Of a DNA stretch of 64,000 nt, positions 53,446 to 58,964 are shown in pieces. Source of the stretch: an uncultured Gemmatimonadales bacterium (GTDB lineage Bacteria > Gemmatimonadota > Gemmatimonadetes > Longimicrobiales > RSA9); NCBI GenBank assembly GCA_963783305.1, contig CAWAMW010000007.1:448001-512000 (forward strand). The letters run 5' to 3'. The notes under the pieces were generated by a model. That model was not told the origin of the DNA, ran no database searches, and saw only the letters and a list, made by a program, of their open reading frames with translations. Each line of letters starts with the position of its first letter. The first letter of the stretch is position 1. The translations under genes and the position numbers were made by a program.

Positions 53446-55800
53446 CTACTCGTCCCGACGAGTCGCCGCGTAGAACGTAGTGCCGCCATAGCGCCGACTC
53501 CGCATCATCAGTTGCGCTGATTGCGGTGCGATCTCTGCCGCGGTAGCCAGGAGCGCGCTCGCAGTCGATCGCTCGCCGAGGGCGGTGTGGACCCAGGCGC
53601 GCAGCGTGAGGAGGTCCACGCTCTGCGTGCCCTTCACGCTCGTCGCCCGCAGGACCTGACGCGCCGCTCCCGTGGCGCCCGCTCGCGCCAGCACCACCGC
53701 GTGTAGCAGGCGCAGCCGCGACTCGACGTCCGTGGGGGCTCCGTACACGCCGAGCTTGCCCAGCCCCTCCTGGAGAAGCCGATCGGCCTCCTCCACGGTC
53801 CACGGACCTACCCACGCGAGGCGCGTGAGAGAGCAGTAGGCGCCCAGCCAGTCGTCCGGCTGCTGGCGCTCGATCTCCGCGCACCACTCTACCGCTCCCT
53901 CCTCGTCACCCACCTCCAGTGCGTTTGTGAACAACCGCACCAGGATCTCCAATGAGGCCGTCAGCGCGTAATCGGTCGCGTACGCCTGCCGCGCCCGGTG
54001 GTACGCTTCCGCGAAATCGCCTCGCTGCTCCGACATGGCACTCAGGATGCTCCACGCCCGGGGGAGTCCCGGGTCCCGCTTCACGGCCGCGGCGAGATCC
54101 CGCTCCGCCACCTCCATGGACGCACCCTCCATCCCCGTCTGCGCCGCCCAGTACCGCAGCACCCCCCGCACCTCCAGCCCGCGGGCGCTTTGCGACGCCA
54201 CGTTCAGCCCGGTCTCCGCGTGGGCCAGCCCCCGCAGGATCGCCCCGTGCGCCAGTTCCAGGTCGTCATTCGGCGGGATCAGCGGCAGCCACATGAAATC
54301 CACCGCCAGCTGCGCACGCCGGAACGTCGGCTCCGGCCAGTCCGGATCCAGCTCCTGCGCCCGCGCCAGCAGCGAATCCGCGGCGGCGTACGCGCGCTCG
54401 GCCGCTTCCACCGCGCCCCGCACCCGCAGTCGGTCGCCCGCGCTCCACTCGGCCGCCGCGTCCCGAACTCCGCTGAGCGCGTCCGGCGCGATTCCGAGCT
54501 CCGTCAGCCCTTTGAGCGAGAAGAAGGAGCCCGCCTGATGCCGGATCCTCGGCGAAATCCGCCCCACCAGCGCCTCCGGTGTCGCCGACTCGCCTTCCGG
54601 TGTCCGAATCATCACCCGGTCGAGCACGACACCGGACGACGCGTCGAGCAGGAGCACCGAGAAGCGCACCGTCCCCTCCTCCATCCGCAACGTGGGGCGG
54701 AGCCGCACTCCCTCCAGGTCCGAGCCCCCGCCATCCACGGCGTTCAGCGCGACGACCCGGAACCCGTTCCCCTCGCTCAAGCGCGCGGCGAGCTCGGCCG
54801 TCACCGCACCGGCCACACCCTTCGTCATGGCGGCGCTTTCCCCCACGTCCCGCACCGGCTCCAGCACCAACGTCCGGGAGAATCGGTCCGAAGCGTCCTC
54901 CGCCTGCACACCCGCCATGGATCGCGACCGCAGCGACCAGAGCGTCACCGATGTGACCAGCAGCACGGCCGCCGCCGCCGCCCACCACACGCGTCGTCGG
55001 CGCCCCTCCGCCGGGGCCGCGTCCGGCCGCCCCACGAGGGGAGCCACAACAGAGTCCGGCGCTTCGCTGGGCGCCTGAACCGCCACCGGCGCCTCTACCT
55101 CCAGAACCGCCTGGGTCGCGGCCGATGGCTCCACCCCGTGGATTTCCTTCATGTGCGCCGCGAACTCGTCGTACGCTGCCTTCGCCCCCGCTCTGTCACC
55201 GGTGCGGACCAGCACCCCCAGCAGTTCCTGCAGCGCCGGCTCTCCACGAATGCCGATCTCCCACGCCCGTCGGGCGGCAGCACCCGCCGCCACTCGGTTC
55301 CCCGCCGACTCCTCCGACCGCGCCACCCGGTGCGCCGCGTCCGCCGCCACAGACTGGATTCGCCGACGCGATCTCTCCAGCCAATCCTCGAACGGCTGCG
55401 GCGCCCCGTCCAGGTGGAACCCCGGCAGCAACTCACCCTGATACAGCTCCACTACCGCGCCCCAACGCTCCTCTTCCGCCGCGCGCAGCAGTTCCGACAC
55501 GTCGCACGACAGCTTCCCTTCAGCCACGCCGATCCCTTCGGATCCCTTGCCCGCGATCGCACCCGGGCCCAGCGACCGCCGCAGATAGTGCAGCGCCTGC
55601 CGCAGCGCGCTTCGGGCACGGTCCTCCTCGAACTCCGGCCAGAGCAGCCCGAGAACCTCGTCCCGCTGGAGTCGCCGCGGACTCTCCAGCGCCAGCAGCG
55701 CCAGCAGCGCGAGCCGCTTGGGCTGGCTCATCACCGAGTCTATGCGCCGCCCATCCGGACCGCGCAGATCCACCGCACCAAGCACTCGGAACGTGAACAT
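53446..55800 (-). CDS. Transmembrane SARP-family regulator (wHTH-BTAD-TM-TolB-like-TPR)
   Basis: FRVLGAVDL...QPKRLALLALL...RDEVLGLLWPE...ARSALRQALHYLRR, LYQGELLPGF, FEDWL; TM VWWAAAAAVLLVTSVTLW; helical-repeat C-terminus. Confidence 0.88.
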   Translation of the reverse strand: MFTFRVLGAVDLRGPDGRRIDSVMSQPKRLALLALLALESPRRLQRDEVLGLLWPEFEEDRARSALRQALHYLRRSLGPGAIAGKGSEGIGVAEGKLSCDVSELLRAAEEERWGAVVELYQGELLPGFHLDGAPQPFEDWLERSRRRIQSVAADAAHRVARSEESAGNRVAAGAAARRAWEIGIRGEPALQELLGVLVRTGDRAGAKAAYDEFAAHMKEIHGVEPSAATQAVLEVEAPVAVQAPSEAPDSVVAPLVGRPDAAPAEGRRRRVWWAAAAAVLLVTSVTLWSLRSRSMAGVQAEDASDRFSRTLVLEPVRDVGESAAMTKGVAGAVTAELAARLSEGNGFRVVALNAVDGGGSDLEGVRLRPTLRMEEGTVRFSVLLLDASSGVVLDRVMIRTPEGESATPEALVGRISPRIRHQAGSFFSLKGLTELGIAPDALSGVRDAAAEWSAGDRLRVRGAVEAAERAYAAADSLLARAQELDPDWPEPTFRRAQLAVDFMWLPLIPPNDDLELAHGAILRGLAHAETGLNVASQSARGLEVRGVLRYWAAQTGMEGASMEVAERDLAAAVKRDPGLPRAWSILSAMSEQRGDFAEAYHRARQAYATDYALTASLEILVRLFTNALEVGDEEGAVEWCAEIERQQPDDWLGAYCSLTRLAWVGPWTVEEADRLLQEGLGKLGVYGAPTDVESRLRLLHAVVLARAGATGAARQVLRATSVKGTQSVDLLTLRAWVHTALGERSTASALLATAAEIAPQSAQLMMRSRRYGGTTFYAATRRDE

Positions 55801-55830
55801 CCTACCCCCTGGAGAGCCCGGATGGCTGCC

Positions 55831-55874
55831 GTTACCTGCCAGGTAACGCTCAGGTTACGGCCGCATGCTACCCT
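55831..55874 (+). promoter_or_regulatory. Candidate SARP-binding repeats and extended -10 for the divergent peptide gene
   Basis: Perfect palindrome gttacctg-c-caggtaac; direct repeats caggtaac/caggttac 11 bp apart; TGC-TACCCT downstream. Confidence 0.55.
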
Positions 55875-56007
55875 TCTCACCGGACATTGGATCGGGACGC
55901 CTCCGGTACGCCGGGAGACGGAGCCATACCCCCGGATGCTACCGTTCCTCGACCGGGCCAACAAGCCATCGAGTCCACCTGCCTTGCGCAGTGGACAGGA
56001 GAATTCC

Positions 56008-56172
56008 GTGACTGAGTCCTCCAGGAAGGCCAGGACCATGCTTGAGGCCCTGTTGTTCGTATGCATCGGGGCGGGCGCGCAGGGATGCACCGGGAGCCCC
56101 ACGGCTCCAGCGGACGACAATGGTCGCATCTGTTACTGGATCTACGGCACTCTGCATTGCCTGGAAGACTGA
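56008..56172 (+). CDS. Small putative lipopeptide (54 aa) with C-terminal Cys loop
   Basis: RBS acaggag, GTG start, signal/lipobox-like AQGC, mature CTGSPTAPADDNGRICYWIYGTLHCLED; hairpin follows the stop. Confidence 0.6.
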   Translation: MTESSRKARTMLEALLFVCIGAGAQGCTGSPTAPADDNGRICYWIYGTLHCLED

Positions 56173-56174
56173 CC

Positions 56175-56226
56175 TGCCGTCACCGTCGCGTAGCTTGCAG
56201 GGGGTTGGCTGCGTTGATGGTGGCGG
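56175..56226 (+). terminator. Long hairpin after the peptide gene
   Basis: gccgtcaccgtcgcgtagc pairs with gctgcgttgatggtggcggt, several G-U pairs. Confidence 0.5.
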
Positions 56227-56328
56227 TACGGTTGGTCCCACTCCTGAGCCGCTCCCATCGGTACGTTGGCCTGGATTTCGCAGCCCTCCTCGGTAGCTTC
56301 GCTCGATCCAGCCACCACAGGAGAACGC

Positions 56329-56451
56329 ATGTCGAAAGAGCTCCGGATCCTGGCGCTGACCGCCGCCGCCCTCCTCGCCGCCCGCGTACTCGTGCTCGCC
56401 ATTGATCAGGCCGTCAATGGCTGGCGCCGTCACCAGCTCTACCAGGACTGA
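56329..56451 (+). CDS. Small membrane protein (40 aa)
   Basis: RBS acaggag plus ATG; one hydrophobic helix; GC-typical codons. Confidence 0.5.
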   Translation: MSKELRILALTAAALLAARVLVLAIDQAVNGWRRHQLYQD

Positions 56452-56511: not shown

Positions 56512-57744
56512 ATGGACCAGTCCAATGTGCTCGCCATCGTCCTTGCGGGCGGTGAAGGGAAGCGACTCCAGCCGCTCACCCGGGACCGCGCCAAGCCGGC
56601 GGTCCCCTTCGGCGGGTCCTATCGCCTCATCGATTTCGCGCTGACGAATCTCGCCCACGGCGGCTACCTCCGCATCGTAGTCCTGACCCAGTACAAGAGC
56701 CACAGTCTCGATGTGCACCTGGCCAAGACGTGGCGTATGGCCCCCATCCTCGGGAACTACGTGATCTCGGTTCCCGCCCAGATGCGCGAGGGCCCCCGAT
56801 GGTTCGCGGGCTCCGCCGACGCCATCTACCAGAACCTGAACCTCCTGCGGGACGAGCGACCCCAGTACGTCATGGTGGTCGGCGCCGACCATATCTATCG
56901 CATGGACCCCCGGCAGCTCGTTCAGCAGCACATCGACAGCGGTGCCAATGTGACGGTCGCGGGCATCCGCGTGCCCCTCGACCAGGCACCGCAGTTCGGG
57001 GTGATCGAGGCGGGCGCTGATGGCGTCATCGAGCGGTTCCGGGAGAAGCCGACCGACGCCCGCGGTCTCCCAGACGCTCCCGACCAGGTGTACGCGTCCA
57101 TGGGCAACTATGTGTTCACCACCCGCGCCCTCATGGAGGCCGTGACCGCGGACGCCGTGCTGGACGATTCACGACATGATATCGGGGCCGATATCATCCC
57201 TCGATTCGTGGACGATGGTACCGCGCACGTATACGACTTCTCCGAGAACGAAGTCCCCGGCGCCACCCCGAGGGACCGTGCCTACTGGCGCGATGTCGGG
57301 ACGCTCGACTCCTACTACGACGCGCACATGGACCTCGTGTCCGTGGACCCCATCTTCAACCTGTATAACCGACAGTGGCCGATCCTGACGGCCCACGATC
57401 CGATGCCCCCGGCCAAATTCGTCTTCTCCGACTCCGGCCGCACCGGGCATGCCCTCGATGCCATCGTCTCCGCCGGAGTCGTCATATCCGGCGGAGAGGT
57501 CCGGCGCTCCGTCCTGTCGCCCAGCGTTCATGTCCACTCCTACGCCGACATCGACGGCTGCGTGCTCATGCAGAACGTGGACGTTGGACGCCACGCCGTG
57601 GTCAGGAATGCCATCATCGACAAGAACGTGCGGATCCCGCCGGGAGCAGAAATCGGCGTGGATCCCGAGGCCGATCGCGCCCGGTTCCATATCACGGAGC
57701 AGGGAATTGTGGTGATCGGAAAGGACCAGCAGATCGCGCCGTGA
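56512..57744 (+). CDS. glgC: Glucose-1-phosphate adenylyltransferase
   Basis: [46 protein letters not shown]. Confidence 0.96.
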
Positions 57745-58964
57745 GCGCTTCCGGCGAGGCGTCTGACCTGCGCATCGCGCTCTGCACCCGCGAGTACCCG
57801 CCGGACGTGTACGGCGGCGCGGGCGTCCACGTGGAGCATCTGGCCCGCGCCATGAGCCCGTACGCCGACGTCGCTGTCCACGCCTTCGGAGCCCCTCGCG
57901 ACGATGCACTCGTCGCCGCCGCCTACCAGCCATGGAGCAAGCTCGAGGGGCCCCACCCGCATCGCGGCGCACTCCAGGCGTTCAGCGTCGACCTCGCCAT
58001 GGCGGCCGGTCTCGACGGGGCCGATCTCGTCCACTCCCATACGTGGTACACCAATCTGGCGGGCCACCTGGCGAAGCTGACCTACGGCATTCCCCACGTC
58101 ATGACCAGCCACAGCCTCGAGCCCCTGCGGCCCTGGAAGGCGGAGCAGCTCGGCGGGGGCTACAACCTGGCCCTCTGGGCGGAGCGGACGGCCGCGGAGT
58201 CGGCGGACGCCATCATCGCCGTCTCGGCCGGCATGCGCACCGACCTCCTGCGCTGCTATCCCTCGGTGGAGCCGGAGCGCGTTCACGTCATCCACAACGG
58301 CGTCGACCCCGATGCCTATCGACCTGACCCGGCGACGGATGTCCTCGAGCGCCTCGGCATCGATCCAGACATCCCGACCGCGGTGTTCGTGGGCCGAATC
58401 ACCCGTCAGAAGGGGCTTGCTCATCTGCTCGACGCCGCCGAGTACCTGCCGGACGGCACGCAGCTCGTCCTGTGCGCGGGCGCGCCGGATACGGACCAGA
58501 TCCGCCGGGAGGTCGCCGACCGGGTCCAGTCGATCCAGGACCGCGCGCGCCTGCGAGTCTTCTGGATTCCGGACATGCTGCCTCGCGAGCAGGTGGTTCA
58601 GATCCTCTCCCACGCCACGGTCTTCGTGTGTCCCTCCATCTACGAGCCGTTCGGGCTCGTGAATGTGGAGGCGATGGCGTGTGCCACGCCCGTCGTGGCG
58701 TCGGCCGTGGGGGGGATTCCGGAGATCGTAGTCGACGGTGAGACCGGATACCTGGTCGAGTTCGAGGCCGGCGGTGACGTCTTCAGATCACCTGCGGACC
58801 CGGCTCGCTTCGCCCGTGACCTCGCGGACCGCATCAACTCGCTGCTCCTGGACCCGGCGGCCGCCACCCGCATGGGTCAGGCGGCGCGGCAGCGGGTCGA
58901 GGCCCGGTTCGCGTGGCCCGCCATCGCGCAGCGCACGCTGGCGCTCTATCGATCCCTCGCCTGA
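57741..58964 (+). CDS. glgM: GT4 glycogen synthase / alpha-maltose-1-phosphate synthase (actinobacterial GlgA/GlgM type)
   Basis: [57 protein letters not shown]. Confidence 0.88.

Follow-up and report, generated by a model that had tools for sequence, protein, structure and literature searches.

A membrane-anchored SARP-type regulator and a divergent Cys-loop lipopeptide gene in Gemmatimonadota: a candidate peptide-receptor feedback loop

In a 64,000-nucleotide stretch of contig CAWAMW010000007.1 from an uncultured Gemmatimonadales bacterium (the window), the gene for a 784-aa membrane-anchored SARP-type regulator stands divergent from a 54-aa open reading frame (ORF) for a Cys-loop pre-lipopeptide, across a 207-bp spacer that carries 11-bp-spaced repeats. 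This layout was noticed in an initial annotation made from the sequence alone, and it is confirmed here by ORFs, domain matches and a structural model. Sequence and comparison show the same two genes paired across genomes and gene orders, together with the repeats and the protein folds. We describe a peptide-receptor feedback loop, to which we give an even chance of being correct, in which the SARP would activate the peptide gene and the exported hairpin would activate the receptor. Here we review the pairing, the peptide family, the regulator, the spacer elements and the alternative explanations.

Receptor-peptide pairing across genomes

A search of 73 genomes of the family with the outer domain of the regulator alone returns 29 non-self loci, 18 of which have a gene for a C-x8-C peptide (two Cys separated by eight residues) beside the receptor. 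Among the best 17 of the 29, 16 are paired (the G005 pairing rests on an inferred join of two contigs), and the remaining locus ends 124 bp downstream. Over all fetched loci, a C-x8-C peptide is encoded beside 24 of the 32 distinct SARP-type receptors (21 by the strict pattern, plus L237, L212 and L015, which were seen separately; one duplicate row was dropped and one receptor is not judgeable at a contig edge), which bears out the expectation that homologous regulators have such neighbors. None of the 23 kinase-type receptors that share the outer fold has such a peptide beside it, a control weakened by the short upstream flanks of most of these loci (37-555 nt).

In the reverse direction, a search of 301 genomes of the order with a peptide profile pointed to 15 regions that were then fetched, and 8 of them contain 10 new C-x8-C genes. 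Six of these touch a receptor gene or a fragment of one, two lie at contig ends and two stand apart; the other 7 regions contain different lipoproteins. Pairing is kept through divergent, tail-to-tail and tandem orders, including loci where the SARP faces another gene. The peptide label clusters on the outer-domain tree, with 7 changes compared with 20.1 in shuffles (a quick tree of 70 rows, from which 4 duplicate or partial rows were left out and in which 4 peptide-bearing rows are mislabeled as having none).

Scans of the genome collection returned mostly generic SARPs, with L040 (= G005) the only orthologue, and the other loci were used as background. The unpublished genomes contribute no peptide-bearing locus: G020, G021 and G024 enter the background spacer counts, G256 supplies one kinase row, and the search tallies include G020, G021, G024, G256, G026, G074 and G493.

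The peptide gene and its family

The 54-aa ORF lies, as initially described, hidden at the end of an antisense frame (724 aa) and has a candidate ribosome-binding site, AGGAG. The public gene call (P0125) has a shorter, 44-aa form of the peptide; the 54-aa form is preferred because its GTG start adds a basic n-region that is present in the homologues. The lipobox-like AQGC is non-canonical at -3/-2 in the window peptide, at least 90% of 20 aligned homologues have its Cys at the same place, and the peptide is probably an exported lipoprotein, with a signal peptide and a lipobox Cys.

The small ORF is conserved. The closest orthologue of the regulator, in G005 (62% identity in the SARP part), is divergent from a gene for a 52-aa lipoprotein with the same C-x8-C end. 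A database search with the peptide gives 50 matches, some being query sequences of this analysis; the C-x8-C loop is present in 48 of the 49 matches listed besides the window's own, as 40 distinct loops, and every named match is a hypothetical protein. The loop follows a pattern (Cys, three mostly hydrophobic residues, a turn residue, Gly, alternating hydrophobic residues, Cys) of the kind expected of a hairpin that would be closed by a disulfide. In one lineage, 22 different loops stand behind nearly identical signal peptides, a contrast that the word-based peptide search may overstate, as it favors shared signal peptides. Three peptides carry tandem double C-x8-C loops (L196:5675-5935, L192:674-937 and L269:186-482).

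The family of pairs occurs within Gemmatimonadota, mostly in this genome's own family, and the taxonomic range of the peptide is narrow, with full-length matches in 3 of 401 genomes of the phylum; the search overlooked at least G344, a known case. Pfam and NCBIfam contain no family that scores above cut-off for the window peptide or the scanned homologues, and in the ESM Atlas the best feature score, 0.86 (under the 0.9 lead level), is to 41-42-aa clusters without names.

The regulator protein

The head of the regulator has the SARP order, an OmpR-type winged helix-turn-helix (wHTH) followed by a BTAD; the BTAD match is above cut-off and the Trans_reg_C match is weak (Table 1). A single predicted membrane helix follows, preceded by an Arg cluster that suggests an N-in/C-out topology, and a comparable helix lies between head and TPR part in 18 of 18 full-length homologues checked (19 of 19 with the window protein). 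A DNA-binding head, one predicted membrane helix and a predicted extracytoplasmic sensor together give the protein the one-chain plan of CadC and ToxR.

The model of the outer part (aa 306-784; predicted local distance difference test score, pLDDT, 90.5) consists of an α/β domain and a TPR superhelix. The TPR-like part had been recognized from the sequence, and the α/β domain before it had been missed. The best structural match of the outer part is MalT domain III (Z 19.9, root-mean-square deviation (rmsd) 5.7, 316 aligned residues), a generic helical-repeat match, and Rap and NprR are among the generic TPR matches (Z 15.7-17.1). The α/β domain modeled alone (pLDDT 89.4) matches TolB (Z 11.3, rmsd 3.1, 107 aligned), CadC (3ly7; Z 9.7, rmsd 3.5, 116 aligned) and CsgG, as well as VtrA with a middling score (Z 7.6), and has a sequence match to FlgO (E 2e-4). 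Because α/β domain and TPRs are arranged as in the periplasmic region of CadC, we regard the 784-aa protein as a membrane regulator of the CadC kind that carries a SARP head.

The outer fold is widespread, being found in 203 of 401 genomes of the phylum (three candidates scored per genome), and Ser/Thr kinases are the majority among the 30 best outer-fold loci. The Cys pair of the TPR part is not specific to SARP receptors, as a loose form of the pattern is also present in 22 of 23 kinase-type outer domains.

Operator, promoters and 3' hairpin

The palindrome in the spacer, initially given as 17 bp, is in fact a perfect one of 19 bp (9+1+9); a 9-bp arm is reached in 11 of 2000 shuffles of the spacer. 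The repeats, GGTAAC and GGTTAC, are 11 bp apart, and the pentamer core is preceded by an inverted copy. Across 23 subfamily spacers, the 38 distances between pentamers include 22 of 11 bp and 8 of 22 bp. Of 125 non-redundant SARP spacers, 34 have an 11-bp pair of [GC]GT[GAT]A, where shuffles give 0.3; many of these are palindromes belonging to the family of the one in the window. An xAnnnT hexamer stands 11 nt past the last repeat in 9 of the 34, with at most one at any other offset. The extended -10 of the initial annotation survives in part: TACCCT is at the conserved offset, and the TG is not kept in the closest orthologue. SARPs bind repeats of 11-bp period overlapping their target's -35 region (PMC10972967, in part). 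The family-wide periodicity and the -10 at a fixed distance support the predicted SARP box and fit this rule.

A second, predicted promoter on the minus strand, overlooked initially, was read by eye (TTGTTG-N17-TAGCAT). It likely serves the regulator gene and would point toward the peptide promoter, face-to-face; the G005 orthologue keeps its geometry. A consensus promoter and terminator scan of the locus found nothing, including this promoter. A reading of the conserved GATGCTACCG box as a second peptide promoter was rejected, because the two hexamers and their 17-bp spacing are preserved in both orthologues on the minus strand alone.

The hairpin reported after the small ORF is present, with fold z-scores of -6.2 here, -4.0 in G005, -3.0 in G049 and -1.3 in G156 (a short stretch). 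Two of its 19 pairs are compensated between two sequences, and Rfam has no match for it.

Table 1. Features of the locus (window positions) and loci of the anchor-less loop forms
Feature	Position	Strand	Remarks
Membrane-anchored SARP-type regulator gene	53446..55800	-	784 aa; wHTH and BTAD, then linker, single membrane helix and CadC-like outer part
TPR superhelix (about aa 439-767)	53500..54486	-	invariant Cys pair C640/C656
α/β domain, TolB_N/FlgO/CsgG type, as CadC subdomain 1 (about aa 306-434)	54499..54885	-	
Single membrane helix, predicted (about aa 271-289)	54934..54990	-	hydropathy; follows Arg cluster
BTAD (aa 115-232)	55105..55458	-	PF03704, above the Pfam cut-off (E 8.7e-5)
OmpR-type winged helix (aa 26-79)	55564..55725	-	Trans_reg_C E 2.9e-4, below its cut-off
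Predicted SARP operator	55830..55858	+	19-bp palindrome 55830-55848; 11-bp-spaced repeats at 55842 and 55853
Predicted -10 of peptide promoter	55866..55874	+	TACCCT 55869-55874; 11 nt past last repeat pentamer
Predicted sigma-70 promoter of regulator	55936..55964	-	TTGTTG-N17-TAGCAT; read by eye
Peptide ribosome-binding site	55997-56001	+	AGGAG, before GTG start
Pre-lipopeptide gene	56008..56172	+	54 aa: signal peptide, lipid Cys27, 14-aa linker, C42-x8-C51 loop
C-x8-C loop, predicted disulfide-closed β-hairpin	56131..56160	+	both Cys invariant in homologue alignments; structure inferred from pattern
3' RNA hairpin after peptide gene	56171..56233	+	no U-tract
40-aa hydrophobic ORF	56329-56451	+	good ribosome-binding site
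glgC and glycosyltransferase (glgA-like) genes	56512-58964	+	downstream on the peptide's strand
Anchor-less loop forms	L191:169-849, L189:5528-6366, L190, L197, L201, L169, L163, L298		

Direct and relayed wiring

The divergent layout is present here as first described, and is a minority wiring. In four loci (the window, G005, G049 and G156) the peptide gene lies immediately behind the SARP repeats. In the usual wiring the SARP instead faces a gene for a LuxR/GerE-type helix-turn-helix (HTH) protein, here called the relay LuxR, and the peptide gene lies tail-to-tail with the receptor gene, often overlapping its stop codon. A second box, an imperfect palindrome of 17 bp, scores above the 99% null level before 16 of the 23 other peptide genes (the matrix being trained on those 16) and below the 95% null level before all four direct-wired ones. 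An xAnnnT hexamer, which lies outside the matrix, stands exactly 22 nt past this box in 12 of the 15 cases shown, four of the cases coming from one genome. Two peptide genes that are apart from any receptor still carry the 17-bp box.

The relay LuxR protein has no receiver-domain or PAS match. It is found in 30 of the 73 family genomes and was not found in G000, G005 (88% complete) or G049, the three direct-wired genomes searched. The locus in the window would be a short-circuited form of the relay loop.

Proposed mechanism and alternative explanations

In the first step of the proposed loop, the SARP head would bind the 11-bp repeats and turn on the peptide gene. In the second step, the exported, predicted disulfide-closed hairpin would bind the outer TPR part of the activator and stimulate it, giving positive feedback. 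Most relatives would have an extra step, from the SARP through the LuxR-type HTH protein to the peptide. With promoters placed face-to-face, firing of the peptide promoter would also damp transcription of the regulator. The loop is favored because the peptide gene remains with the receptor gene in three different gene orders, even where the peptide has its own promoter, and because the peptide label clusters on the tree.

The idea that the TPR part senses the peptide, already put forward in the initial annotation, receives weak support from co-folding of the outer part with the peptide, which scores 0.54 (runs 0.62, 0.02 and 0.54) compared with 0.02 for the best of 3 controls; the runs share at least 3% of contacts, the partner has a pLDDT of at least 35, and the result is a score without an interface. 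The mark is reached by 116 of 157 solved pairs and 2 of 215 mismatched pairs, and 18 of the solved pairs and both mismatches that reach it score 0.60 or under.

Several observations weigh against the loop. Seven of the 32 SARP-type receptors are without a C-x8-C peptide (three have other Cys loops and four have none), and the genomes compared are kin rather than independent samples. In a second lineage of 15 peptides the loop is fairly constant. SARPs of the phylum face exported proteins of many unrelated kinds, which fits an output gene as well as a ligand. The gene maps show no recurring processing protease or exporter. By the E. coli lipoprotein sorting rule, the Thr at +2 would direct the peptide to the outer membrane, and from an outer-membrane anchor the 14-aa linker may not reach the receptor. 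The operator pattern, which was derived from this very site, has a single match in the genome, which leaves the peptide as the sole visible direct target of the SARP, and a loop without another output is hard to rationalize.

The anchor-less forms also count on this side. In 8 loci from three genera (Table 1), a protein of 71-104 aa that lacks a signal peptide carries the C-x8-C loop at its end, and the export of these forms is without explanation. Their genes come just after a gene for a conserved secreted 150-aa protein with four invariant Cys, for which there is no family match and no usable match in the ESM Atlas. The profile likeness between the anchor-less leader and the domain of a conserved small protein encoded beside some kinase receptors is weak (probability 9.7%, E 0.003), and homology is unproven.

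An alternative that we hold to be doubtful is that the membrane-tethered peptide binds the receptor as a brake or co-component (MgrB- or ToxS/TcpH-like), holding it off or stabilizing it, with the disulfide or the trafficking of the peptide reporting the state of the envelope. The pairing evidence as a whole agrees just as well with this reading, most members of the peptide family retain the lipid anchor, and the outer part has a CadC/VtrA-type fold. MgrB is likewise a small membrane-tethered peptide with two periplasmic Cys, both essential, and is transcribed under the system that it regulates, being induced by PhoPQ and inhibiting PhoQ (10.1101/2022.12.22.521624, in part). MgrB, however, is a bitopic inhibitor of a histidine kinase, whereas the present pair would consist of a lipoprotein and a one-component regulator. 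The strongly varying loops of one lineage, the tandem double loops of three loci and the anchor-less forms suit a signal better, and a brake would need other targets, none of which is visible here. If the peptide is a brake, MgrB-type logic would extend to one-component regulators.

It is unlikely that the peptide is an output only (e.g. an envelope, metal-binding or antagonistic peptide), made under a receptor that senses something else and never touches it. Such a role would agree with the many kinds of exported proteins that Gemmatimonadota SARPs face, with the breadth of the outer fold, whose 30 best loci are mostly kinases without a peptide, and with the two peptide genes that carry the 17-bp box apart from any receptor. 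It sits poorly with the relay loci, where a peptide gene with its own promoter box still lies at the 3' end of the receptor gene and often overlaps the stop codon, with the clustering of the peptide label (7 changes, 20 when shuffled), and, weakly, with the co-fold score relative to its control.

A precursor of a RiPP (a peptide made by the ribosome and modified after translation), matured by enzymes encoded elsewhere, would share the leader-plus-core layout, and one double-loop homologue weakly matches a chryseobasin-related model (E 0.018, 15.7 bits with a cut-off of 40). This is very improbable, as the leader is a Sec/lipoprotein signal peptide and no maturase-like gene recurs in the gene maps, which were read by eye with most neighbors outside the Pfam scan. 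A chance frame at the end of an antisense shadow ORF, for which a codon-usage score near zero and the lack of a family match might speak, is already refuted because the ORF is conserved, in the same layout in G005 and with its loop throughout the database matches.

Taking the feedback loop one step further, it is conceivable, and put forward tentatively, that the pair is an extracytoplasmic peptide-pheromone system of a diderm. A shed or surface-held hairpin with strain-specific loops would activate a single-chain TPR receptor-activator from outside the inner membrane, allowing self-recognition or quorum sensing without a kinase, an importer or a dedicated maturase, and with two interchangeable wirings.

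Comparison with known systems

CadC senses pH and lysine through LysP. It shares with the present regulator the winged-helix head, the single membrane helix and a periplasmic region made up of an α/β sandwich and then a TPR helical domain (PMC9214523, in part). The present regulator differs in the BTAD that follows the winged helix and in the linked gene, which encodes a Cys-loop lipopeptide.

With SARPs it shares the wHTH + BTAD head and the 11-bp repeats, and the relay wiring recalls the cascade from Streptomyces PimR to PimM, in which a SARP activates a LuxR-type regulator that turns on the final genes (PMC5930380, in part). Here, by contrast, the sensor is predicted to be extracytoplasmic, the relay LuxR is without the PAS or receiver match, and what is finally targeted is a peptide rather than an antibiotic cluster. 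The SARP review divides the family into small, medium, large and SARP-LAL classes, and the word 'transmembrane' is absent from the available part of it (PMC10972967).

RRNPP systems (ComRS, Rap, NprR) combine a TPR peptide receptor with a neighboring small peptide gene, positive feedback and variable peptides (PMC5131902, in part). The TPR part (a proposed peptide receptor here) and the adjoining small peptide gene are shared, and the feedback would follow from the DNA boxes. In contrast to the cytoplasmic RRNPP receptors with their re-imported linear peptides, the TPR part here lies beyond a membrane helix in all of the proteins checked, the head is that of a SARP, the peptide is a Cys-loop lipoprotein and the host is not a Firmicute.

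In the co-component systems VtrA/VtrC, ToxR/ToxS and TcpP/TcpH, the partner is a co-transcribed lipocalin-like protein encoded downstream (PMC9214523, in part). A membrane transcription factor, an adjacent gene for an extracytoplasmic partner and (for VtrA) a related α/β fold are common to these and the present pairs, whereas the partner here is a 50-80-aa Cys-loop peptide, mostly encoded on the opposite strand with its own promoter and divergent or tail-to-tail in all but a few loci.

No description of this peptide family or circuit was found in the open-licence PMC and bioRxiv literature. A census of transmembrane transcription regulators mentions no BTAD, SARP, TPR or Gemmatimonad in its main text (PMC10269533), and its supplements list BTAD in 213 regulators. 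The component parts are known, and membrane BTAD regulators have been catalogued in a supplement and not discussed. Since the general arrangement of a membrane SARP opposite an exported protein recurs widely in the phylum, what sets the present system apart is the peptide family and how it is wired, rather than the regulator by itself.

The papers found name no ligand for the CadC-like outer domains of Gemmatimonadota kinases and regulators. With this family come a candidate ligand that is small and synthesizable, a predicted operator, and naturally occurring receptor-peptide pairs by the dozen. Should the peptide act between cells, the pair would form a peptide autoinduction circuit that joins RRNPP-like TPR sensing with a ToxR/CadC-like membrane architecture, in a widespread and barely studied phylum.

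Cassette boundaries and neighboring genes

The two genes lie between rdgB on one side and a conserved 40-aa ORF on the other. In G086 and G087, rph and rdgB are directly followed by a homologue of the 40-aa ORF, so that regulator gene, peptide gene and hairpin form a self-contained cassette inserted at this site. The 40-aa ORF is accordingly rejected as a member of the module; in G005 it is found elsewhere. Since the 3' hairpin has no U-tract, read-through from the peptide gene toward glgC is possible. The glgC/glycosyltransferase neighborhood is not kept at the other loci, which often have histidine kinases or response regulators close by.

A second copy of the peptide was not found in G000 (95.96% complete). 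This genome encodes three other proteins with the same outer fold (C16:675384-677720, C16:371807-374958 and C15:413549-416045), each with a small gene right behind it, one of which encodes a lipoprotein.

Related small genes

Small proteins of other kinds occur at related loci. In a sister receptor clade (L198:5584-5910, L203:5685-6002 and L185), the receptor genes have tail-to-tail genes for small proteins with three-Cys or differently spaced loops. In G014 (L267, L268), copies of the peptide gene with a gene for a cysteine-protease-like protein are repeated within one genome, some adjoining frameshifted or truncated receptor genes.

Other SARPs (L042, L045, L050 and L089) face 45-55-aa lipopeptides with a shorter Cys loop and then Pro-Cys, which are a second tiny-lipopeptide family. 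Five genomes of another family (L273-L276, L278) encode a 62-aa lipopeptide with a C-x10-C loop and a Gly/Ser tail, its gene lying between a regulator-like gene and the gene for a 400-aa protein, near polyketide synthase/nonribosomal peptide synthetase-type genes. Kinase receptors with the same outer fold (L207, L210, L215, L229, L231 and L236) have a tail-to-tail neighbor of another conserved family without a name, and one of these neighbors ends in a C-x7-C loop.

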